DNA of 31,051 nt from a virus (Duplodnaviria; Heunggongvirae; Uroviricota; Caudoviricetes), in IMG/VR virus record IMGVR_UViG_2909309443_000003, one strand, 5' to 3'. A model generated the notes under the pieces. It searched no databases. It was not told the origin of the DNA and worked only from the letters and a program-made list of their open reading frames with translations. Positions within the stretch are counted from its first letter, which is position 1. The number at the start of each line of letters is the position of its first letter. This document shows, piece after piece, positions 1,666-22,665 of this stretch. The position numbers were made by a program, and so were the translations under genes.

Positions 1666-4110
1666 TCAATAGTCGTGGGTCATGTTGGCACGCTGGCGGG
1701 CGCGTTTATCGCGCTCAATCTGTTCGAGCGTGTCGCGTAGTTGTCTGTCAAGCTGATGCCCCTGCGCAACACCTCCCGGCAGATTGATGTTGTATTCGCT
1801 TTTGCTCTGGTCAATGTAAGAGCGCCCCGCCGGTGCGGTAACTGGCTGATAAGCCTGATAGCCGCCATATGTGCTGGTTGCCGGGATGTAGGAATTACCC
1901 TGTGTGGCGGCATTGGTTTTGGCGGCGGTCTGGTCGAGGCTGTCCGACTCTTTGTTGATGATGCCGAGCTTTTCGAGAAGCCAGTCGACACCGCTGCGCA
2001 GCTTGTTAAAAACATTGAGCGGAGCCATCAAGGCAGAGGCCAGTGCCTGACCAAATATGACGCCGACATTTTTGCAGCTATCAAGCGTTTCCTGCGTGGC
2101 CTTAACCGGTGCTATCAGGTCTTTAAACCACTGCCAGACGCCGCGCAGTTTCTCGCCGAGACCATCAAAAATGGGAGCCAGTGGAGCGAACATTTCCCCG
2201 ACTGGGGCAAAGGCACTCATGATGCCCTCAATCACTCCCGAGAAAAATGCGCTGATGGGCTCCCAATATTTACGGATGAGTAGCGCCCCCGCCACAATCG
2301 CCGCACCGACGGCCACTATCGGCCAGGTAATCGCACCGAGCGCTGTCGCAATGGCACTACCGACGACAGTAAAGACCGTACCCAGCATGCCAGCAGCGGC
2401 GATAATGGCATTAATCCCCATGACAACCGGCCACGCAACGAGACCAATGCCGCCGATGATACCAATCAGCGCCAGCGCACCACCGGCAATAATCCCGATA
2501 GTTGTCGTCAGCCCTTTGTTTTTCTGGATCCAGCCGTCGAGCTTCAACACGTATTGTGTGGCGGTTTGGGTGAGTTTGCGCAGCGAGCCCTCTTGCTGGT
2601 CAAAAAGGTCGGTACCGACAGCCTCATAAGCAGACTGGAACTCTTTAAAATCACCGCCGAGGTTGTCCTGCATAATTTTAACAAGCTCTGCGGTTTTTCC
2701 GTCTGAGGCTTTCAGGGTGGAGGTTAGCTGGTCAAGTTTGCCGGTTGAGGCGGCAGTCATGAGCACCGCCGCCGCCGAACTGGCTTCCTCACCGAATATC
2801 GTTTTCATGTATTCGGCTTGTTGACCGGTGCCGAGATTGTTACGCTCAAAACTGGCCTGCATTTCCTTGAGGATGGTAAAAATCGGGCGCGTGTTGCCTT
2901 TACTGTCGGAAGTTTTGACACCCAGCTCCTTAAGCGCATCCCACGCTTTACCGGTCGGAGCCTGCAGGCGGCTTAAAACCGCACGGCTCCCGGTGCCGGC
3001 CATCGAGCCGGTGATTTTGGCGTCATGCAGGGCGCCCACCATTGCGGCAGTTTCTTCAATGCTGACACCGGCATTTTTCGCCACCGGCGCGGCGTAGGTC
3101 AGCGCATCGCTCAGCCCGTCGAAATCGGCAGCAGTTTTATTCATCACCGTCGACAGAACGTCGCCAATGTGCGCCACCTTGTCATTGGAAAGCTGAAACG
3201 CAGAGCGCATCCCCATCAGTAATGCGGCGTTTTCTTCCATCGTGCGACGGTTGGCAAGCGCCATATTGAGGGTGACCGGTGTCGTCGCCTGAATGGCTGC
3301 CGCATCGCCGCCCCCTTTGGCGATAATAATCTGCGCACTGGCTGCATCATCAGCAGAAGCGGCTGTATTGTCACCGAGCTGGCGCGCCTGTTTGCGTAAC
3401 GACTGCATTTCTGGCGACTGCTTATCGACCCCGAGCACAGCCTGCAGCTCGGAGTTTTTTTGCGCAAAGTCATAACCGGGTATCAGCAATTTAACCCCGG
3501 CCATCGTTCCCGCTGTCGCAATACCGACCCCGGCAGCACCTGCAGCGGCCATGTTACCGGCAAGCTCCTTACCCGATTTATATCGCTCTTTCACTCGGTT
3601 TAGGTGCGCCTGCTGTGCGCTGACCTTCGCCAATGCTTCACGCTGCCGGTTGAGCTGCGCCGTCGTCTCGCTGATGCGTGTTTTAAGCCCCCGCTCATCG
3701 TTTGCCAGATTGCGGGTATTGATACCGGCGGCACCCAGCTCGCGTTGTTGGCGTTTAACCGACTCGGTGAGGCTGTTGTATTTAACCTGCAGCCCCTCGG
3801 CGGCACGTTTTGCGGATTCGAGCACCTGTGCCTGCGCTCGCGTCGGGCGCTCAGTATTTTTGAATTGCGTGGCAAGCGCTTCAGCCTCGCGCTTTGCCTT
3901 CTCCAGCGACTGGCCGGTTACGGCCAGTTGAGCGCTGGTTTTGCGAAAGCCGTCGATTTTCGCGGCCTGCCCGTTCAGGTCACGCAGCCCTTTTTGTGTG
4001 TCGCGAATATCGCCCGACAGGGTTTTACTCGCGGTCTGGATGGATTTAAGCGGTCGGGTCGCCTGGTCGACCGCTTTCAGCAAAACCTCAAGTCTCAGGT
4101 TATTACTCAT
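1666..4110 (-). CDS. T: tail tape measure protein (P2 gpT family)
   Basis: 814-aa ORF with a coiled-coil-like N-terminal part and a Gly/Ala-rich hydrophobic central block typical of tape measure proteins; sits downstream of E/E'. Confidence 0.9.
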   Translation of the reverse strand: MSNNLRLEVLLKAVDQATRPLKSIQTASKTLSGDIRDTQKGLRDLNGQAAKIDGFRKTSAQLAVTGQSLEKAKREAEALATQFKNTERPTRAQAQVLESAKRAAEGLQVKYNSLTESVKRQQRELGAAGINTRNLANDERGLKTRISETTAQLNRQREALAKVSAQQAHLNRVKERYKSGKELAGNMAAAGAAGVGIATAGTMAGVKLLIPGYDFAQKNSELQAVLGVDKQSPEMQSLRKQARQLGDNTAASADDAASAQIIIAKGGGDAAAIQATTPVTLNMALANRRTMEENAALLMGMRSAFQLSNDKVAHIGDVLSTVMNKTAADFDGLSDALTYAAPVAKNAGVSIEETAAMVGALHDAKITGSMAGTGSRAVLSRLQAPTGKAWDALKELGVKTSDSKGNTRPIFTILKEMQASFERNNLGTGQQAEYMKTIFGEEASSAAAVLMTAASTGKLDQLTSTLKASDGKTAELVKIMQDNLGGDFKEFQSAYEAVGTDLFDQQEGSLRKLTQTATQYVLKLDGWIQKNKGLTTTIGIIAGGALALIGIIGGIGLVAWPVVMGINAIIAAAGMLGTVFTVVGSAIATALGAITWPIVAVGAAIVAGALLIRKYWEPISAFFSGVIEGIMSAFAPVGEMFAPLAPIFDGLGEKLRGVWQWFKDLIAPVKATQETLDSCKNVGVIFGQALASALMAPLNVFNKLRSGVDWLLEKLGIINKESDSLDQTAAKTNAATQGNSYIPATSTYGGYQAYQPVTAPAGRSYIDQSKSEYNINLPGGVAQGHQLDRQLRDTLEQIERDKRARQRANMTHDY

Positions 4111-4590
4111 TGTGGTGTCCGCTACGCTGCAGCGCCTTTTCGCGCCATGTGATGAGCTCGGTCAGGCTCAGGGAATAGAGCTCTGATAGCGGCCAGTGGA
4201 ATATCACCGCGATATCCGCCATCAGGTCATCGGTCGACAGGTCGGGCGGGAAATCTACTCCGCCGAAGCCGGTGACAAAAAACCAATCACCTTAGCGGCC
4301 AGCGACAGCATATCGGGCAGGTTCATTGCGGTAAGCTCCTGCGCCGTAAGCGCGGGGTAGGTCATGCGTGGCAATACCTTAATCAGCGCATCGACTTCGG
4401 ACTGCGCCACCGCTGCCAGACTGACACCGCGCAGGGTACCGGCGTTCGGCTCAATCAGTGTGACTTTATCAATCGTCTGACCGGCGCGCTTAATCGGCTT
4501 GTCGAGGGTCACGACGTTCGGGTTTACGGTGTCAGTTTCATTGCCAGCCATATCAACAAATTCAGCGGTTTTACGTGGTGCTTTTGCCAT
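4103..4590 (-). CDS. E+E': E+E' tail chaperone made by programmed -1 frameshift
   Basis: Hand translation: after slipping on GGT TTT TTG the -1 frame reads VTGFGGVDFPPDLSTDDLMADIAVIFHWPLSELYSLSLTELITWREKALQRSGHHNE and stops at 4105-4103, overlapping the T start codon at 4110. Confidence 0.8.
4255..4590 (-). CDS. E: tail assembly chaperone E (P2 gpE family)
   Basis: 111-aa ORF (MAKAPRKTAEFVDMAGNETDTV...) directly upstream of T; ends GFLSPASAE with a slippery heptamer at the 3' end. Confidence 0.9.
   Translation of the reverse strand: MAKAPRKTAEFVDMAGNETDTVNPNVVTLDKPIKRAGQTIDKVTLIEPNAGTLRGVSLAAVAQSEVDALIKVLPRMTYPALTAQELTAMNLPDMLSLAAKVIGFLSPASAE
4276..4282 (-). promoter_or_regulatory. T6G slippery heptamer (TTTTTTG in mRNA) for the E to E+E' frameshift
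   Basis: Plus strand CAAAAAA at 4276-4282 gives T TTT TTG on the minus-strand mRNA in the E frame, the slippery motif I recall for the P2 E/E' frameshift. Confidence 0.75.
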
Positions 4591-4653
4591 GATGTTTTTC
4601 TCTGCTCTGAATGGGGATTAATAACAGGCCAGCAGTGCTGACCGGTCAGGGAA

Positions 4654-5172
4654 TTACAGCCCGATTGCGCGGCGGTGCTGTTCCAGACGGTCGACGCCGT
4701 TCACCTTCTCAACCATGTTGACGGTATCGATTTCGATGACGTCGCTACCATCAATCGTGAGGCGGTAATAGGTGCATACGGTCGACAGTTTGGTCGAGGT
4801 GTTTTCACCCTGCTTATTCTCGCCGCCGTCGATTTCTTTATGACGGCCACGCATGACCACCTCGACCGCCACGATTTCGCCAGTGTCGTCACGTTGGTAA
4901 GAGCCAGCAAAACGCAACGGCACAGCGTCAGCACCCGGCGCGGCGTACTGCGCCCACAGCGCCACATCAGGCAGGCCACCGACAGACCATTCGACGGTGA
5001 GCGCATCATCGTCGAGACCAAGGTCAATCGCCGCCGCGCCATTCATGCCGCCGCCGCGATAGTTTTCGAGCTTGCGGGTCAGCTTCGGCAGCGTCACGGA
5101 TTCAACAACGCCCATGTAGCTAAGGCCGTCATTGAACATGTTCAGATATTTAAGTTTGCGGGGTAGTGCCAT
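4654..5172 (-). CDS. FII: tail tube protein (P2 gpFII family)
   Basis: 172-aa ORF (MALPRKLKYLNMFNDGLSYMGVVESVTLPKL...) immediately downstream of FI; recognisable FII sequence. Confidence 0.9.
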   Translation of the reverse strand: MALPRKLKYLNMFNDGLSYMGVVESVTLPKLTRKLENYRGGGMNGAAAIDLGLDDDALTVEWSVGGLPDVALWAQYAAPGADAVPLRFAGSYQRDDTGEIVAVEVVMRGRHKEIDGGENKQGENTSTKLSTVCTYYRLTIDGSDVIEIDTVNMVEKVNGVDRLEQHRRAIGL

Positions 5173-5187
5173 GTTGTTTCAGGCTCC

Positions 5188-6366
5188 TTAGCTGTTGACC
5201 GATTCGGCCAGATTCACCAGATATTTATCGGTGATACGCTGGCGCAGGGTCAGGCTTTCCAGTGGTGGAACCGGTGTATAGTCGTAGTCGATATACAGTT
5301 TCCCGGCCTTGAGGGTTTCCTTATCGTTCGATTCCTCGTCGAACCAGCATTCACCGTCCACGATGTAGCCGTTTGATTTCAGCTCGCGGAATTTGGCGTT
5401 AATGCCGTCGACAATGTCACGGATAAGTGATGCGGTGATGGGCTTATCGACCGCCCACATGTGCGCCTCGGCCATCGTGTCGGCCAGCACCTGCGCGGTG
5501 CGGGTGTAGTTCTCAAACAGGAAAAGCGGGTCATCAGAGCAGGTGCGGTTACCCCAAAAGCGGAAGCCATCCTTACGCACCAGTGTCGTGACCCCGGCCT
5601 CGTTGAGCAGATCAGCATCGGTGCCGGATGCCTGCAAATCCCAAAACACTGACGCACTGATGCCGGTAACACCCTGCACGCCGACGTTAGACAGGGTTTT
5701 GTGCCAGCCGACGGTCTGGTCGATATAGGCACGCAGGCCGAGTGCGCGCGCAGTTGCGTATGCCGGTGCGGTGGCGTTTGTGGTGGTATCCCATGCAAGG
5801 AAATCAGGCCAGATGACCATCAGCTCGCGCTGGCTGAAATTCTCGCGATAGGCCATCGCCTCGGAAATGGTTTTACAACCCCATGCGCTGATATAGCCAA
5901 AGGCGCGCAGGCTGATACAGACCGAAGCAAGTGCGACTGCGACCTCTTTGGTATCGAGACCCGGCACGCCGAGAATGCGCGGCTTAACGCCGGTGACTGC
6001 TTCGGCAGTCAACAGCGCCTTGATGCCGGTATATTTACCGTTCTCATCCGTGCCGCCGATGATATTGGAAATGGTCTGCGCTTCGGCGTCTTCTCCGGTA
6101 CCTTCGGCAACACGCACGACAACTGTGACAGGTTTTGACTGGTCGGCGATGGCCTGCAGGGACGCGGCCAGCGTGCCTTTTTTACCGGCTTTCGCAATGG
6201 CGCTTTGCACATTGGTAATCAGTACCGGCTCGTTGAGGGGAAAGGTTGCCGCATCCGCATCGCTGGCTGTACAGACCATGCCGACGATTGCGGTTGCAAC
6301 AGTGGAAATGACGCGGGTGCCGTCGTTAATCTCAAGCACCTGCACGCCGTGGTGAAAATCACTCAT
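5188..6366 (-). CDS. FI: contractile tail sheath protein (P2 gpFI family)
   Basis: Track ORF 5188-6393 trimmed to the ATG at 6366 (MSDFHHGVQVLEINDGTRVISTV...), which has GGAG about 10 nt upstream; 392 aa. Confidence 0.9.
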   Translation of the reverse strand: MSDFHHGVQVLEINDGTRVISTVATAIVGMVCTASDADAATFPLNEPVLITNVQSAIAKAGKKGTLAASLQAIADQSKPVTVVVRVAEGTGEDAEAQTISNIIGGTDENGKYTGIKALLTAEAVTGVKPRILGVPGLDTKEVAVALASVCISLRAFGYISAWGCKTISEAMAYRENFSQRELMVIWPDFLAWDTTTNATAPAYATARALGLRAYIDQTVGWHKTLSNVGVQGVTGISASVFWDLQASGTDADLLNEAGVTTLVRKDGFRFWGNRTCSDDPLFLFENYTRTAQVLADTMAEAHMWAVDKPITASLIRDIVDGINAKFRELKSNGYIVDGECWFDEESNDKETLKAGKLYIDYDYTPVPPLESLTLRQRITDKYLVNLAESVNS

Positions 6367-6424
6367 CCGGTTAACTCCGTGGTTAGTGGGCAAGTGTTAT
6401 TGTCCTGGCTGGTCTGTTGAGGGG

Positions 6425-6706
6425 CTATTTGTCAGTGTTGGGCGATGTCTGACACATTGAGACATCAGCAACGGATGCGGGAAATTTTTTGTATAGCGTT
6501 GAGATACCCGAGGCGATCCAGTTTCCAGACCACAAGCGTATCGCCCTCTGACAAGGTTCTGAGTAACCTCTTTAGCCCGGCCAGTCTGATGTTTTGCCGC
6601 TGATTTTATCTTCGAAAATCAGCTCACATCCTGCGCACTCCAGTTCATTTCGCTGTAATGCGGTGTTCTGGTCATTTGTTGATACACGTACATAACCGAT
6701 AAACAT
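6425..6706 (-). pseudogene. Gin/Hin/Pin-type serine DNA invertase remnant (frameshift plus internal deletion)
   Basis: Hand translation of the minus strand: ATG at 6706 gives MFIGYVRVSTNDQNTALQRNELECAGCELIFEDKISGK, then a stop. The GDTLVVWKLDRLG motif continues in another frame, then jumps straight to the C-terminal GISTLYKKFPAS in a third frame. Only about 280 bp remain of an expected 570 bp or so. Confidence 0.8.
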
Positions 6707-6760
6707 GAGAAATAACCCGGTAAAAAGTCGGGATCATGCCAGCTGAACGGAATATCTGCG

Positions 6761-6786
6761 TTTTCTAAAAGGTTGGTTTGGGGGAA
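6761..6786. repeat. hix/gix-like inversion crossover site (right boundary of invertible segment)
   Basis: TTTTCTAAAAGGTTGGTTTGGGGGAA is an inverted copy of 8567-8592 (20/26 identical, 13 of the last 14) and resembles the 26-bp hix/gix sites as I recall them. Confidence 0.7.
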
Positions 6787-7122
6787 TTGGCTCTGGCTGG
6801 CGCAACAACCGGCGCTATGTTGGTGAATGGGTATGTAGCAATTCCATTAATTATTTCTGGCGTTCGGAGACCACTTATTATCCAGTGGGGAGTGGGGCAG
6901 TTTGGGGGAAGTCTGGGGGATGATGCGGGATATTTAAACAATTTCCCTTTCGCTTTTCCGTCGGCGTGCTACGTGATGGTTGCCAGCCACGTGGGGCATA
7001 CACCTTCGGGTGCCGGAATACTATCTGCTTCCGCAATCACAAAAAGCGGCTTTCGTGGTTTTTCCAGCGTAGCGACTGCCGCAAATCCTGTATCGGGCTG
7101 TTATGTTGCTATAGGAGGGTGA
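6769..7122 (+). CDS. alternative tail-fibre C-terminal segment Hv' (silent orientation, no own start)
   Basis: Open frame from 6769 reads KVGLGELALAGATTG..., beginning with the same K-x-L-G-L-G-E junction encoded at the H crossover site; followed by its own assembly gene. Would fuse to the constant part of H after inversion. Confidence 0.65.
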   Translation, partial: KVGLGELALAGATTGAMLVNGYVAIPLIISGVRRPLIIQWGVGQFGGSLGDDAGYLNNFPFAFPSACYVMVASHVGHTPSGAGILSASAITKSGFRGFSSVATAANPVSGCYVAIGG

Positions 7123-7123
7123 T

Positions 7124-7558
7124 GTGTTTTTTAGTCCATCTTTAAATATTTTTGTGAATCCTGCGCTTAAGGATGACTACATCAATGTAAATTCATGGCC
7201 AGATGATGCTGTTGAAGTTGATGAGCAGGTGTATATTGAGTTTTCCGGATTACCGCCGAAAGGAAAAATCCGTATCGCTGGGGAAAATGGTTTTCCTGCA
7301 TGGTCTGAAATTCCACCACCAACGCATGAGGAACAGATTGCCGCAGCCGAATTGAAAAAACAGCAATTGATTAATCAGTCCAACGAATATATGAATACCA
7401 AGCAATGGCCTGGTAAAGCGGCTATTGGTCGTCTGAAAGGTGAGGAACTGGCGCAATATAATTTGTGGCTGGATTATCTGGACGCACTGGAACTGGTTGA
7501 TACCTCCAGTGCTCCAGATATTGAATGGCCTACGCCTCCGGCAGTTCAGGCCAGATGA
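7124..7558 (+). CDS. tail fibre assembly protein, alternative copy (Tfa')
   Basis: 144-aa ORF whose C-terminal motif (LWLDYLDALELVDTSSAPDIEWPTPP) parallels that of the minus-strand gene G; the two converge and overlap at their 3' ends. Confidence 0.75.
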   Translation: MFFSPSLNIFVNPALKDDYINVNSWPDDAVEVDEQVYIEFSGLPPKGKIRIAGENGFPAWSEIPPPTHEEQIAAAELKKQQLINQSNEYMNTKQWPGKAAIGRLKGEELAQYNLWLDYLDALELVDTSSAPDIEWPTPPAVQAR

Positions 7559-8123
7559 CATCCGGCGCGGTGCTCGTATCTGTTGCCGTCACCGCGTCAA
7601 TGTAATCAAGCACGGCGTTAAGCCGGGTGGTTTCTGCCTGCGTCAGCTTCCGCCCGGCCTGTAATTTCAGCTGAATCAGACTGATGGAAGCCATTGCAGC
7701 ATCAATCAGTGACTGGCGCTGTGCTTCTGCCGCTTCTACTGCGGCACCGTGTTGTGCCTCAGTATCTGTCACCCATTTCTCACCATCCCATTTATCATAT
7801 GGCGTTAACGGTGAAAGCGTGACATAACCGTTTTTGATGGCACCGATATAATCCACTGTAACAGCAGCACCATTTTCGATTGAGTAAACAGTCTCATTGC
7901 GATGGTCTTCTTCATGGCTCCATCCCTTACCTGTAAATACTGCCACTCTTCCCGGAATGTTTTCGCCAGGGTCAATACCAGTGGAACAGGCGGGCATACT
8001 TACGCCAGTATTAATATATTCATCAGACCAGCCCGTATACTCAGATGTTTCAGCATCATAATAAAAACAACGCATATCGCCCGGCACTGTAGCCAGCCCA
8101 TTTTCATCAAAAACAGGTTTCAT
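7530..8123 (-). CDS. G: tail fibre assembly protein (P2 gpG family)
   Basis: 197-aa ORF immediately downstream of H; C-terminal AVLDYIDAVTATDTSTAPDVIWPELP motif. Confidence 0.85.
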   Translation of the reverse strand: MKPVFDENGLATVPGDMRCFYYDAETSEYTGWSDEYINTGVSMPACSTGIDPGENIPGRVAVFTGKGWSHEEDHRNETVYSIENGAAVTVDYIGAIKNGYVTLSPLTPYDKWDGEKWVTDTEAQHGAAVEAAEAQRQSLIDAAMASISLIQLKLQAGRKLTQAETTRLNAVLDYIDAVTATDTSTAPDVIWPELPEA

Positions 8124-9187
8124 TATTTAGCCCTCACCAGAAAGTTAAATGCAATATTTCGCGGTCTGACAGCAACAAAATTCACACCATCACCCACAGA
8201 GTTACTGGTGAAATTAAATCGTGAAAATCCTGGCTGATTTCCGGCGATGCCATCATGAAAGTTAATTGCGTGTCCCGCACCTCCGCCTATATTCCCGGCA
8301 AACTGAGAAAAGTTTGTAGCTTCCTGCCAGCTTAATAATTCGCGACCACCATCGGCACCTCGCCCGTCATCCCAGATACGAATGAAATCACCGCGGGCTT
8401 CAGGTAATACCAGTGAAGGAAACACTTTCGCCAGCACAGGGTAATCAGAGGCAGAAAATTTCGCCCCGTTGAACTTCAAAAACACCATACTGGACCAGCT
8501 GTCGATTACAGTATTTGGCATTGCAGCGGACGGCCAGAAGAACGGAACGCCAATAGCTGGAGCACCTTCTCCCAAACCAAGGTTTTTAAGAACGTCGCCG
8601 GCCAGTCCCGCGTCAACCATTTCTTTCAGAGCATTAGCGATTAACGGGTACTGCTTGTGTGGATTGGCGGCCTCAACATGTTTTTTCATCAGGTCATCAG
8701 CATATCCTTTCACCTCGATAATCTTGTCGTCGACATACTGGCGCGTTGCCAGCACGACTGCCGGGTCGATTTTCAGGGTGATTGCCGATGTGCTCGACAC
8801 AATCAGAATCATGCGAATGGTCTGCGTGCGACCGCTTCCCTCCTGCAGTTGTGGCTTGTAGGTCTCCGGACAGTTCGCCACGGCAATCAGAATACCATCA
8901 TCGTCATAGAGACCAATCTCGCGGATCCAGAAACCACCTTCATTCTCGGGAATAATCTGTTCCGCGATAATCTGACTGGTATTGGCCGGGTCAACGGTCA
9001 GCAGGTTCAGCGGCGCGATGCGTTTCTGGTTAATGAGCTTCGTCTGCGCCGGGTCAGGGGTCGGCAACGTACCATTCGCATCACCGACGGCCATCTGCGT
9101 CAGGTTGAGTTTGGTACCGAGTGCCGCCGCGTTCGCCAGCCGCGCCGCGCCCTGATTGGTCAGAATGGCAAAATATTTTGCGGTCAT
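8123..9187 (-). CDS. H: tail fibre protein (P2 gpH family)
   Basis: 354-aa ORF; the N-terminal part (MAVGD..., GGFW.RE.GLYDD.G.LIAVAN, YKP.L.EGSGR, DDKI) matches the conserved P2 H N-terminus; the C-terminal 147 aa lie inside the invertible segment. Confidence 0.85.
   Translation of the reverse strand: MTAKYFAILTNQGAARLANAAALGTKLNLTQMAVGDANGTLPTPDPAQTKLINQKRIAPLNLLTVDPANTSQIIAEQIIPENEGGFWIREIGLYDDDGILIAVANCPETYKPQLQEGSGRTQTIRMILIVSSTSAITLKIDPAVVLATRQYVDDKIIEVKGYADDLMKKHVEAANPHKQYPLIANALKEMVDAGLAGDVLKNLGLGEGAPAIGVPFFWPSAAMPNTVIDSWSSMVFLKFNGAKFSASDYPVLAKVFPSLVLPEARGDFIRIWDDGRGADGGRELLSWQEATNFSQFAGNIGGGAGHAINFHDGIAGNQPGFSRFNFTSNSVGDGVNFVAVRPRNIAFNFLVRAK
8567..8592. repeat. hix/gix-like inversion crossover site inside H (left boundary of invertible segment)
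   Basis: TTCTCCCAAACCAAGGTTTTTAAGAA is close to the hixL consensus as I recall it (TTCTTGAAAACCAAGGTTTTTGATAA). It encodes VLKNLGLGEG of H on the minus strand, at the constant/variable junction. Confidence 0.75.
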
Positions 9188-9792
9188 GCGTTCACTCTCA
9201 GGTTATCAATCAAATGGATGGCCGAGGCCGGGTAATATTCACCGCCGACGACAATCTCCTCGGGGGTGTAGGGGTAAACAGTCAGCGCGTCGCCGTGATA
9301 GCATCCCGCGCCGACATACAGTTCGCCGGTCGAGCTCAGACTGATAGCCAGCCCGGTCAGGTGGCGACTTGCCGGTTTGGCGTCTTCAATCAGGCGCTCA
9401 AGCTCCTGATACATTTCGTCAGTAATGCCGCTATCGAGCACGCCGACAACGAGGCGGAATGTGCCTGGCTCCTCGTTGAGCTGCCACCACTCGCGCACTT
9501 CAATCAGAAAGCCGAGCGGCTCAACCACCCGACGCAATGCGCTAATGGTGCCTTTGTGCTGATGGACGAAAAACGAGGACGCGCAGACGCTACGCTTTGT
9601 CGCCTCCGGCCATTTCTCATCCCACCTGTCGACCGACAGCGCCCACGCCAGATACGGCAGCAGTTTTACCGGGCAGGTGCGCCAGTTCCACAGAGTGCGC
9701 AGCGGTACCGGCACACGCTGAATCTCAGAGAGCGCGGCAGCGGCGGCAACCTCCAGCGGCGACGAGCCAACGGGTAATAGCCGGTCATTCAT
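9184..9792 (-). CDS. I: baseplate assembly protein I (P2 gpI family)
   Basis: 202-aa ORF between J and H, overlapping both neighbours as in P2. Confidence 0.85.
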   Translation of the reverse strand: MNDRLLPVGSSPLEVAAAAALSEIQRVPVPLRTLWNWRTCPVKLLPYLAWALSVDRWDEKWPEATKRSVCASSFFVHQHKGTISALRRVVEPLGFLIEVREWWQLNEEPGTFRLVVGVLDSGITDEMYQELERLIEDAKPASRHLTGLAISLSSTGELYVGAGCYHGDALTVYPYTPEEIVVGGEYYPASAIHLIDNLRVNA

Positions 9793-10693
9793 CCGAGCCC
9801 CCGATAGTTATCTGGTACTCGGTACAGTTCGACGCCTGCGACTTACTCAGCACTATGTCGGCCTGCGGTGATGTCAGCTCGACACGCTGCACCCCCTCAA
9901 CATGCAGCGCCGCATAAATGGCTGACAGACGGATATCACGCCCGAGGCGGTGCTGCGCGCTGATGTAGCTCTGCAACTTCTGCTCTGACGCCTGCCTGAT
10001 GGGTTCAGATTCGGGGCCGGGGTAAACGTAGATCGTCGCGTCAATCTGGTACGGCACAATCTCGGCTGACTGGACGGTCACCCGGTCAGCTACCGGGCGC
10101 ACATCTTCGGCGTTCAGCGCTTTATCAACAATCGCCAGTAGCTCAGGGCTGGCAGTGCCGTCCCCCTCACGCGATAGCACGGTAATCGTCACGCAGGCTG
10201 GCGACGGGCTGGCGACCGAAACGTCAGCGACCCGCCCGTCGGCGCTGCGGCCGTGATACTCATATGCACCGACCGGACCCGCCACGCTCAATCCCTCAAA
10301 CGCCTGTTGCGTGCGCAGTCGCAGGTCGGTATCAGATTCCATAACGGCAGGTGTCGGCGGGATGGTGGTATCATCCGCCGGGGTGATGGTCAGGCGTTCG
10401 GTATTATTGTTCCCGGCTACGACGTCGAGGTCGTTACCGGCGGAGTAGGCCAGCGTCACCGCCTGCGCGGCTTCGTTCACCCGCTGACGCCAGATAACTT
10501 CACGGTAGGCGTTTTCCTGCAGCAGCTTAACAATCGGCTCTGACTCAAGTGTGAGCGTCCGGGCAATGGCCTCCTGCTGGTCTTCGGGATAGAGCGAAAT
10601 CAGCGTCGCAATGCGTTCCGCAAGGATAGTTTCATAGTCCAGTTCCTCAACCACATCGGGAACGGGTAACTGACTCAGGTCAACGGTTGCCAT
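9785..10693 (-). CDS. J: baseplate assembly protein J (P2 gpJ family)
   Basis: 302-aa ORF following W in the order V-W-J-I-H. Confidence 0.85.
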   Translation of the reverse strand: MATVDLSQLPVPDVVEELDYETILAERIATLISLYPEDQQEAIARTLTLESEPIVKLLQENAYREVIWRQRVNEAAQAVTLAYSAGNDLDVVAGNNNTERLTITPADDTTIPPTPAVMESDTDLRLRTQQAFEGLSVAGPVGAYEYHGRSADGRVADVSVASPSPACVTITVLSREGDGTASPELLAIVDKALNAEDVRPVADRVTVQSAEIVPYQIDATIYVYPGPESEPIRQASEQKLQSYISAQHRLGRDIRLSAIYAALHVEGVQRVELTSPQADIVLSKSQASNCTEYQITIGGSDE

Positions 10694-10699
10694 AGTGAT

Positions 10700-11047
10700 T
10701 TAACTCAGTGAAACAGTGGTTGAAACTGACGCACCGGTATCGGTACGCATCCCGGTAATATCGACATACATTTCGCCAGCGTCGCCGGTCTCAAAGTTGA
10801 TGGAGGTAAGCCTGATGCGCGGCTCCCACTTCTGGATAGCCGAATAGCACGCCACCATAATTTGCAGCCTGAGCGCCGGGTTTTGCGGCATATCAATCAG
10901 CGCCGACAGAAGCGAGCCATATTCACGGCGCATCACCCGCGAGCCGACCGGCGTCAGCAGTATGTCGCGCATGCTCTGGCTGATGTGCTCAGTGTCGCTG
11001 ATGCCGAGGCCGGTATTTCGGTTCATACCCTGATAGCGCGCCGTCAT
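10700..11047 (-). CDS. W: baseplate wedge protein W (gp25-like, P2 gpW family)
   Basis: 115-aa ORF (MTARYQGMNRNTGLGISDTEHISQSMRDILLTPVGSRVMRREYGS...) downstream of V. Confidence 0.85.
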   Translation of the reverse strand: MTARYQGMNRNTGLGISDTEHISQSMRDILLTPVGSRVMRREYGSLLSALIDMPQNPALRLQIMVACYSAIQKWEPRIRLTSINFETGDAGEMYVDITGMRTDTGASVSTTVSLS

Positions 11048-11679
11048 AACGGTGCCCCCGTTTGCCCGCCGCTGTCGCCTGGGTGTTTATGGGTGTGGAG
11101 TACCTTGCCATTAGACGACAGTGACCCGCCGGTATGTTCGATATTGCCGCTCATCTTGCCGCCTTTTTGTACCTCAAGCGTCGCTGTCGTCAGCTTATTG
11201 GTGCAAATCACCTCCGGGGTGTCGAGGGTGATACTGGTCGAGGCTTTCACCAGTACCAGCGGTACGGTTGCAGTGATGGACTCCGATGCCGTCACGTCGG
11301 CAGTTTTGATACCGCTGGCCGTCAGCGCGCCGGCCTCGGGCTCGTACTCAATGACCGCACCATCAGGGAAAGCCACATGCCACGCATCCGCCGAGGCAGA
11401 CGGGGCGGGGTTATCGTCGGAGAAAATACCCGGCAGCACGAAAGCGGTATCAAGCTCGCCACCGATTGCCAGCAGCAGAACCTGCTCACCGACCGAGGGA
11501 GCCCACCACGTCCGCGAACGACCGGCTCGGGTGGTCAGCCAGTTCAGCCATGTAGTCTGGATCCCGCCGCTTTGTACACGGCACAGCCCCTGCACGGTAT
11601 CGACCTCAGTCACCACCCCTGTGCGAATGAGGTTGCGTATTGCACGGGCAAGCTCTTGAATGATATTTGATGTATTCAT
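11044..11679 (-). CDS. V: baseplate spike protein V (P2 gpV family)
   Basis: 211-aa ORF, first gene of the V-W-J-I-H-G block; stop overlaps the W start. Confidence 0.85.
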   Translation of the reverse strand: MNTSNIIQELARAIRNLIRTGVVTEVDTVQGLCRVQSGGIQTTWLNWLTTRAGRSRTWWAPSVGEQVLLLAIGGELDTAFVLPGIFSDDNPAPSASADAWHVAFPDGAVIEYEPEAGALTASGIKTADVTASESITATVPLVLVKASTSITLDTPEVICTNKLTTATLEVQKGGKMSGNIEHTGGSLSSNGKVLHTHKHPGDSGGQTGAPL

Positions 11680-11766
11680 TATGTAAGCATGCCGCTTCTT
11701 TTCATTGCAGACAAAACTTCGGGATTGGAAAGGGGCTCACACAGCAAGACACTTTCAAAGATCTGA

Positions 11767-11794
11767 TTGACACGCATCATTGGGCACGTAAAAA
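11767..11794 (+). promoter_or_regulatory. candidate sigma70 promoter of the cargo gene (TTGACA, 16-bp spacer, TAAAAA)
   Basis: Perfect -35 hexamer TTGACA at 11767-11772 and an AT-rich -10 at 11789-11794, about 40 bp upstream of the ATG at 11833. Confidence 0.5.
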
Positions 11795-11832
11795 TCATCA
11801 ATCCCATTTAATCTGAATGCATTAAAAATAGA

Positions 11833-12708
11833 ATGACTTTTAAATCTTTCGCTGCTGCAGCAATGAACAAAATTGATGCCATAAAACCAATAATACAATC
11901 CTTATGCAAAATGAAGCACGTGTTTATTATTTTTATTTTATATGCATTTGGCGTAACACTTGCCTCTATACACTATGGTAATTACAATGATTCATTCCTG
12001 TCTGGGTTCCTAATAAATGCAAATTCATCCATTTTGGATTTTTTTGTATTAGGTGTCATCCTTTATTGCTTTGAATACAGAAGACAAAACAAAGAAACGA
12101 TTAATGAACTTCTTGAGGATTTGGGAAACTTAGCTAAGCACGTTAATGTTGATTTGAAAATACAAAAAATAAAAATAATAAGACAGCTCAACAATAAAGG
12201 TGTCTTCAATATAGACATACCCAGAATGGAGTTGGGTGACCTTTTTACCATTAAATACTTACACTTTAAAACCTCAGAACTATCTGGGTTAAATATGGAA
12301 AAATCTAACATAAGAGACTGTTCTTTCACTGGATGTACAATCCAGGCATTAAATATTAGCAAGAGCAAAATGAAAAACGTAAAATTTATAAAGTGTAAAA
12401 TAAAAAATATTAAAGCTCAGGATTCAAAGTTAAACGGTGTTATTTTTGAAGGCTGCTATTTATATGGTGGGGATTTTTCCAATGCGGAAATGAAAAGTTG
12501 CGTACTCAGAGAGTGTGATTTGGATAAAGTGGAATACACCAATGCAAACCTTAGAAATGCCAACATAATCGATGCAAAAAATATTGACGTGAACAAACTT
12601 ATAGAAGCTAATACACTAGACTATATAGACTGTGATAGTGAAATAGAAAGACAAATCCTATCATCCAGACCAAACACGAAATTTACTAAACGATATTTAC
12701 GAGGCTAG
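11833..12708 (+). CDS. membrane-anchored pentapeptide-repeat protein (AT-rich cargo gene at the S/V junction)
   Basis: 291-aa ORF, opposite strand to the flanking late genes and visibly AT-rich. Two predicted TM helices (about residues 29-48 and 56-80). Residues about 162-255 form roughly 18 consecutive pentads with a hydrophobic residue at position 4 (NANLR, NANII, ECDLD, SCVLR, GGDFS). Confidence 0.7.
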   Translation: MTFKSFAAAAMNKIDAIKPIIQSLCKMKHVFIIFILYAFGVTLASIHYGNYNDSFLSGFLINANSSILDFFVLGVILYCFEYRRQNKETINELLEDLGNLAKHVNVDLKIQKIKIIRQLNNKGVFNIDIPRMELGDLFTIKYLHFKTSELSGLNMEKSNIRDCSFTGCTIQALNISKSKMKNVKFIKCKIKNIKAQDSKLNGVIFEGCYLYGGDFSNAEMKSCVLRECDLDKVEYTNANLRNANIIDAKNIDVNKLIEANTLDYIDCDSEIERQILSSRPNTKFTKRYLRG

Positions 12709-21660: not shown

Positions 21661-22665
21661 ATGGGCGCGGAGATTAATATTTTGGAAACTGATTTTAAAA
21701 TAACCCTCGAAGGTTTCGCTACTGAGCAAGAAGCAAATAATATCGGTAATTTCACACTAGAAGCTATCCGAGCTTTAACAAAGAATCTCAATCTTGATAT
21801 CTCCAAATTAAAATGCGTGATTGTTTCCTATAACTTCAGTGAAGCTCTTCAAAAGGTAACATCCTCTTACCAACACAAATCCCCTAGTTCATTTACCAAT
21901 AGCAAACAGGGCGCAGCCGTCGGGCAGTTAGTAACAAAAATTGGCAATGATGGGCTATATGAAGAATATACCCTTGTGCTATCGATTGATTTTTTTGTTG
22001 AGCTTTTCAATGATGGTAGCTTCTTAAAACTGAAAGAAGAAGGATACCTCGCAGTCATCCATCGCATTCACCATGAATTAGTGCACGTACATGAAAAAAA
22101 CTTACTAACATGCTTAGCCCAAAACTTTACAGTCAACGAGTATGGTAGCGCGCTTCTTATCTCAGCCACGCGTGCATGGTCTGAATATCTCGCTAATTAC
22201 ATGTCTTCGGGGTCTGCCCCTCAAGAAACTGTCGATTTATTTTTAGAGAATCTTGACACTGTTGTAAATGAAGTATCTGACGAGATTGAAAAACTCATCT
22301 GGGGTTATAAGTACGGTAATATTTCTCTGAATGACATGTATCTTGAAGTAAAAAAACGTATCAGGCTAATCATCAACTCTTATGCTTATGCGATGGGTTA
22401 TGTCCATTCTCTAAACATCAATATTAAAGAATACGATCCAAAGCTATCCCTTACACTATCCAACTCAAAGATAAGATATCAATTATCAGAATTAGGCATT
22501 GCTTTTCAGAATCTTTATGGGAAGTTTAATGACCAGCACATTACAGGTTTTGGTGATTTTCGGGAGATAACAATAATCATTGATGAAATATTCAAGCAGT
22601 TTGGGCTTGTTTTAGAGTGTCCCGATTGGTCTGGCGACGGTGAACTCTACATACATGTAAATTAG
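21661..22665 (+). CDS. HExxH-motif protein of unknown function (AT-rich cargo gene between Q and cos)
   Basis: 334-aa ORF, AT-rich relative to its flanks, with no TM segment or signal peptide. His-rich motif HHELVHVHE at residues 137-145 contains HExxH. Occupies the phage-end cargo position next to cos. Confidence 0.7.
   Translation: MGAEINILETDFKITLEGFATEQEANNIGNFTLEAIRALTKNLNLDISKLKCVIVSYNFSEALQKVTSSYQHKSPSSFTNSKQGAAVGQLVTKIGNDGLYEEYTLVLSIDFFVELFNDGSFLKLKEEGYLAVIHRIHHELVHVHEKNLLTCLAQNFTVNEYGSALLISATRAWSEYLANYMSSGSAPQETVDLFLENLDTVVNEVSDEIEKLIWGYKYGNISLNDMYLEVKKRIRLIINSYAYAMGYVHSLNINIKEYDPKLSLTLSNSKIRYQLSELGIAFQNLYGKFNDQHITGFGDFREITIIIDEIFKQFGLVLECPDWSGDGELYIHVN

Follow-up and report, generated by a model that had tools for sequence, protein, structure and literature searches.

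A P2-like prophage of Escherichia coli carries an invertible tail-fibre cassette that has lost its own invertase and is probably still flipped in trans

In the G segment of phage Mu and the C segment of phage P1, alternative tail-fibre tips (S and S') and their chaperones (U and U') are swapped by a serine invertase, Gin or Cin, acting at 26-bp sites. Wild-type invertases of this Din type require two such sites and, in cis, an enhancer bound by Fis. The P segment of the Escherichia coli K-12 prophage e14, inverted by PinE, is built from a constant fibre part, a crossover site, a tip with its tail-fibre-assembly gene (tfa), a convergent tfa' and tip', a second site and an invertase gene that is read away from the segment. 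In P2-like prophages, invertible loci lie beside the fibre genes as well, namely in Fels-2, with the invertase Fin, and in enteropathogenic E. coli E2348/69, for which phase variation was shown by sequencing and polymerase chain reaction (PMC4272514). Here, we analysed a virus record of 31,051 nt (IMGVR_UViG_2909309443_000003), hereafter called the window, which is 100% identical to a part of the chromosome of E. coli E1535, isolated in Argentina from diarrhoeal stool, and comprises exactly one complete P2-like prophage, from the integrase gene to gene D. It harbours an invertible tail-fibre cassette of the same kind next to the stub of an invertase gene. We demonstrate the anatomy of the cassette, the lesions of the stub, the conservation of the crossover sites and the repeated, precise inversion of the segment after the gene had decayed. 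Hence, we consider it probable that this Din-type host-range cassette, in an otherwise complete prophage, has a dead invertase of its own, has kept its cis-acting parts and is still flipped in trans.

The cassette is located in the late tail operon, between the H/tfa genes and FI, and its invertible segment, as delimited by comparison with the prophage of strain N21, extends over about 1.8 kb between the two core dinucleotides (6775-8578). Tail-fibre gene H in its present form (8123-9187, minus strand) encodes 354 residues with the Pfam domain Phage_tail_fib at residues 1-150. Residues 1-207 are constant and end in KNLGLGE (residues 201-207), a stretch encoded by the crossover site, while residues 208-354 form the variable tip. 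Downstream of H follows the currently expressed tail-fibre-assembly gene (7530-8123, minus strand; Pfam Caudo_TAP, E = 4.6e-27), which is also annotated. On the plus strand lie a silent alternative fibre C-terminus, Sv' (6778-7122), a promoterless open reading frame (ORF) of 114 codons with a Gp53-like C-terminal domain (Pfam PF21882), and the silent chaperone gene of Sv' (7124-7558; Caudo_TAP, E = 2.8e-35). A constant N-terminal part is hence accompanied by alternative C-termini, each with its own Caudo_TAP chaperone. An earlier note, made from the letters of the window without database searches, had proposed that tail-fibre-assembly genes converge here and that the fibre has two alternative C-termini, and both proposals hold. 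The note had also placed the motif K-x-L-G-L-G-E at both junctions, which is true for H, whereas the silent junction, in matching frame, reads stop-K-V-G-L-G-E. Inverting 6775-8578 in silico joined Sv' in frame to H residues 1-207 and yielded an H of 318 residues, which equals the annotated H of N21 residue for residue. Both silent ORFs, Sv' and tfa', are intact and the same as the expressed copies in N21. Inversion would swap the 147-residue tip and its 197-residue chaperone for a 111-residue Gp53-like tip with a 144-residue chaperone. These findings support the note's assignment to the Mu G and P1 C type of host-range cassette, and equally to the e14 P type, in a P2-like prophage.

Two observations concern the origin of the segment. 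The stretch 7991-8585, which covers the expressed tip and the start of its chaperone gene, shares 92% DNA identity with the side-tail-fibre ends of the lambdoid phages mEp213 and mEp043, so that these receptor-binding modules are common to P2-like and lambdoid phages. The content of guanine and cytosine (GC) is 46-50% in the invertible region (6601-8400) and 54-62% in the adjoining tail genes, which is consistent with a horizontally exchanged module.

At each end of the segment, we found a 26-bp crossover site, the two being in inverted orientation. The invertase-proximal site (6761-6786), read on the minus strand from inner half over core to outer half, is TTCCCCCAAACC-AA-CCTTTTAGAAAA (inner half 6775-6786, core 6773-6774, outer half 6761-6772), and the site inside H (8567-8592) is TTCTCCCAAACC-AA-GGTTTTTAAGAA (inner half 8567-8578, core 8579-8580, outer half 8581-8592). 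They lie in inverted repeat arms (6759-6798 and 8555-8594) of at most 40 nt at 73% complementarity. The 31-kb window holds exactly two copies of the core 14-mer TTCYCCCAAACCAA, at 6773-6786 on the minus and at 8567-8580 on the plus strand, compared to 0.03 copies expected from dinucleotide shuffles, and two or more copies were present in 0 of 100 shuffles. Both 26-mers have conserved half-sites and an AA core and fit the family of e14 pix, P1 cix and Mu gix. The e14 sites used for comparison are TTCTCCCAAACC-AA-GGTTTTCGAGAG and TTCTCCCAAACC-AA-CGTTTATGAAAA, cixL and cixR of P1 read TTCTCTTAAACC-AA-GG..., and gix of Mu reads TTCCTGTAAACC-GA-GGTTTTGGATAA; the core is AA as in cix and pix, in contrast to GA in gix. 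The outer half-site CCTTTTAGAAAA is common to all relatives that bear the invertase remnant, including those in which the segment is flipped. The earlier note had called both sites hix/gix-like and had conceded that its reading would fall if they were not conserved as crossover sites in related phages. The repeat arms, the count of the 14-mer and the fit to the known family bear out the first point, and the objection fails because both sites match known crossover sites of e14, P1 and Mu.

The closest likeness is to the e14 P segment, which has the same order of elements, a size of 1797 bp compared to about 1.8 kb here, and two tfa genes with a 29-bp overlap of their 3' ends, as in the window. 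Inner half-site and core, TTCTCCCAAACC-AA, are shared, and the e14 repeat CCTTCTCCCAAACCAA (as quoted in PMC12529663) is present verbatim at 8565-8580. In contrast, e14 is lambdoid while the prophage studied here is a P2-like myovirus, its invertase is a pseudogene, and only 432 bp of the tfa genes (88%) and the stub (74%) resemble e14 in DNA. In sequence, the cassette is a relative of e14 and not e14 itself, and K-12 e14 is not supported as its source. Compared to Mu G (3 kb) and P1 C (4.2 kb), the cassette is smaller, its tip domains differ and its invertase is dead. The loci of E2348/69 and Fels-2 share the phage family and the position beside the fibre genes, but have an intact invertase where the window has a stub. 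Intact versions of the same layout are found in E. coli 2013C-4974 and DE17.

No intact serine-invertase gene combining Resolvase and HTH_7 domains adjoins the segment. At 6425-6706 on the minus strand lies a pseudogene of the Gin/Cin/Pin type, the one gene of the prophage that RefSeq does not annotate as intact ('recombinase family protein', 'frameshifted; incomplete'); its pseudogene status is therefore already flagged by automatic annotation. Its lesions were mapped by alignment to the intact 197-residue invertase of strain 2013C-4974, which has both domains. One nucleotide is missing after nt 128, in the C-run 6576-6578, which shifts the frame, and a 311-nt deletion removes nt 200-510 of the intact gene (codons 67-170), with its junction at about 6503-6509. 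The frame that starts at the ATG ends after 44 codons (stop at 6572-6574), and the Pfam Resolvase N-terminal domain matches its residues 3-41 only. Profile positions 2-48 and 52-76 of Resolvase are still detectable by Pfam in the stub, in two different frames, and HTH_7 was not found by Pfam. The DNA for GDTLVVWKLDRLG abuts the DNA for ISTLYKKFPA, but no fusion protein is encoded because the two stretches differ in frame. A functional fusion protein, as a candidate product of the stub, was ruled out on this ground and by the end of the ATG frame after 44 codons. The alignment bears out the earlier note in calling the gene a remnant; the frameshift it had placed after about codon 40 exists, at codon 43/44, and the fusion of GDTLVVWKLDRLG to the C-terminal tail is real for the DNA and not for a protein. 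Judged by its reading frames, the enzyme is certainly non-functional. The 311-nt deletion took most of the catalytic domain together with the DNA-binding domain, and the 1-nt frameshift came later.

Is the switch then locked, as the earlier note had thought probable? Evidence on inversion was obtained by comparing assemblies of near-identical prophages. Strain N21 carries the same prophage, with 99.97% identity to window 3000-6786 and 99.92% to 8567-12500, and its stub is 100% identical to that of the window without gaps. In N21, however, window 6767-8580 is reversed, at 99.9% identity. Half-sites have been swapped reciprocally: the outer ones remain attached to the flanks, and a C/T difference in the inner half goes with the segment. 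Because this polymorphism moves with the segment, the exchange between E1535 and N21 can be placed within 10 bp including the AA core. The N21 junction is found at 100% identity also in JKHS016 and E1739. Four further pairs, which carry other cassettes, show the same pattern: EC12 and EC15 (flanks 100% identical over 8.5 kb, inverted cassette 1.87 kb), CH425 and CH423 (flanks 100%, cassette 1.87 kb), EC1 and KE40 (flanks 100%, cassette 1.94 kb), and 222 and FDAARGOS_1280 (flanks 99.7-99.8%, cassette 1.55 kb). In all five pairs, opposite orientations are combined with breaks inside the 26-bp sites, and all five share the same 311-nt deletion. Because near-identical prophages with the same deleted stub differ by precise inversion of the cassette in five cases, inversion continued after the invertase had decayed.

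The history of the stub allows the order of events to be deduced. In about 36 complete E. coli genomes, its allele aligns in one piece across the same deletion junction at 97-99.7% identity, and the phage record vB_EcoM-613R3 carries it too. At the crossover site, the stub is followed by differing cassettes, at least five in all. Three sub-alleles can be distinguished: one with the deletion only (EC12, EC15), one with an additional 1-nt deletion (window, N21, CH423, CH425, EC1, KE40), and one with an additional 4-nt ATCA duplication (222, FDAARGOS_1280, vB_EcoM-613R3). Since all three share the 311-nt deletion, this lesion came first and the small ones later, and since it is also shared by the five pairs, it is older than the inversions. 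By this comparison of sub-alleles, inversions occurred in every branch after the large deletion.

We weighed this against three other explanations. The cassette might have frozen in one orientation after the decay of the invertase, leaving the silent tip and chaperone as decaying passengers. The certain loss of the cognate enzyme fits this view, as does the absence from E1535 of the commonest K-12 Pin donors, e14 at icd and Rac at ttcA. Against it stand the five near-identical pairs with the same deletion and opposite orientations, as well as the silent Sv' and tfa' ORFs, which are still intact and identical to the copies expressed in N21. As read from the assemblies, a locked switch is not compatible with the five-pair pattern, and we regard a frozen cassette as unlikely. 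Orientation differences might also arise by homologous recombination or gene conversion with other fibre cassettes, or by RecA-independent events at short repeats, with no site-specific invertase involved. Such cassettes are indeed mosaic and widespread (parts of the segment were found in 3359 of 5426 genomes, at up to 8 places per genome), and one stub has been joined to at least five of them with the break at the crossover site. However, the flanks of the pairs are 99.7-100% identical, the segment is the same DNA in reverse, differing at 2 positions in the site overlap, and breakpoints inside the 26-bp site mark a reciprocal exchange. Moreover, the inverted identity shared by the ends is only about 14-16 bp, which we judge too short for efficient RecA recombination. 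These points make recombination without an invertase a decidedly improbable source of the pattern. Finally, opposite orientations could reflect choices of the assembler, given that only assemblies were compared. The repeats (at most 40 nt at 73% complementarity) are far too short to confuse complete-genome assembly, and the same precise breakpoints recur in five independent pairs from different laboratories; besides, an assembler forced to choose an orientation would have met both in the culture, and that would itself be inversion. An artefact is therefore very hard to believe.

Which enzyme, then, would flip the cassette? A Pin-family serine invertase encoded elsewhere in the host, on another prophage or a plasmid, would act on it in trans. 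The five inversions after decay favour this possibility, which the earlier note had kept as a reservation to its locked switch. Cross-talk of this kind has been described: the e14 P segment is inverted by PinQ, PinR and PinE alike, the Salmonella H segment by Fin of Fels-2, and Mu G by PinE (PMC12529663). In these cases, too, an invertase of one prophage flips a segment at another locus, the mechanism we propose here; the difference is that their target loci keep a working invertase of their own, while the candidate trans enzyme would be the sole source for the cassette studied here. Of the 5426 complete E. coli genomes, 2521 have a pinE-like gene with a match covering at least 80% of pinE. 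Inversion by a resident Pin-family invertase is thus the most likely explanation. A literature search on truncated invertases and inversion in trans in P2-like prophages gave nothing relevant.

Several points weigh against the view that the cassette is still flipped in trans. The regions inspected in E1535 gave no intact invertase at icd, at ttcA or where Qin is expected: e14 and Rac are both absent from their sites, and the Qin region is rearranged compared to K-12 and yielded no invertase. By megablast, a second copy of the stub/site region was not found in E1535. A similarity search had reported a second place for this strain. Next to its core, the invertase-proximal site differs from functional pix in reading CC instead of CG; the same CC is present in the flipped relatives. 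In addition, flipping is seen between assemblies and not directly within the E1535 population, and the function of the enhancer discussed below would rest on homology inside a conserved coding region.

This enhancer belongs to the cis-acting parts. In the P1 record, it is annotated as nt 19-90 of cin, and in the window its homologue occupies 6617-6688 on the minus strand (72 nt, nt 19-90 of the invertase gene). No gaps interrupt its alignment with cin, gin, pinE and two intact P2-type genes, and the stretch is identical to cin at 59 of 72 positions. As in Mu gin and P1 cin, it belongs to the first 90 nt of the gene, and the distance of 67 bp from the crossover centre to the ATG of the stub is the same as between Mu gixR and gin. 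Kahmann et al. 1985, as cited in PMC3798978, placed the Mu enhancer element 'within the invertase gene'; for Hin, the proximal Fis site is about 100 bp from hixL (PMC3798978). With both sites present and the enhancer homologue retained, the cis-acting machinery appears complete and the enzyme alone missing, and we infer that the homologue would be used in inversion. Its conservation alone says nothing on use because it sits in a conserved coding region.

One further step can be suggested tentatively. The 5' stub may persist as a recombinational enhancer kept by selection as a cis element and not as a gene in decay, in which case the lineage would be one of invertase-less cassettes wholly reliant on co-resident Pin-family enzymes for continued switching of host range; we regard this as possible, with the chances rather against it. 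In its favour, at least five cassettes, each in both orientations, accompany the stub with the 311-nt deletion, and the three known lesions of the stub, secondary ones included, are all situated 3' of nt 90 and spare the 72 nt homologous to the enhancer. Three lesions are too few to give their position statistical weight, the probability that the two small ones both miss the enhancer by chance being about 0.4. Retention of the 5' part among truncated pin genes in general, to which a spread sample of ten rows had hinted, was dropped as a line of evidence: the 5' part is best conserved in DNA, which amounts to a detection bias.

As for the setting, the prophage resides in the yfiB-to-rplS region of the E1535 chromosome, and Peduoviridae are the best phage matches of the window. 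In RefSeq, genes and gene order are those of P2: int, CI, replication gene A, Q P O N M L, lysis, R S, V W J I H and FI FII E T U D. Elsewhere in E1535, gene order between 1.56 and 1.61 Mb is inverted compared to K-12, and copies of IS1 lie beside several pseudogenes. Two accessory genes were noted in the prophage. Between S and V, in an island of 31.5% GC, an ORF at 11833-12708 (plus strand) encodes a pentapeptide-repeat protein of 291 residues (Pfam PF13599 and PF00805), which is also present in the N21 prophage, while vB_EcoM-613R3 carries another gene there, annotated 'YjcF'. PADLOC gave no match for the protein, Pfam returned pentapeptide repeats alone, and the gene looks like a moron. 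The second, an ORF of 334 codons in an island of 39% GC (21661-22665, plus strand), adjoins the portal gene on the side toward replication gene A, which we take to be the old/tin accessory-gene hotspot of P2. Pfam and PADLOC searches with its product returned zero matches, and it may represent a defence or exclusion gene not described before.

Since this type of switch is textbook knowledge and the pseudogene was already flagged in RefSeq, our results leave the understanding of such systems unchanged. What may be mildly notable is the clear evidence, from comparison of genomes, of continued flipping after loss of the cassette's own invertase, in several clinical E. coli lineages. A dead invertase beside an invertible cassette is therefore no sufficient reason to consider the switch locked; in this prophage, the cis elements have survived the loss of the enzyme. 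Clonal pairs that differ in orientation only provide a natural experiment on the cross-talk among prophage invertases. As flipping continues after the enzyme has gone, the host range of a prophage or tailocin can depend on other mobile elements in the cell.

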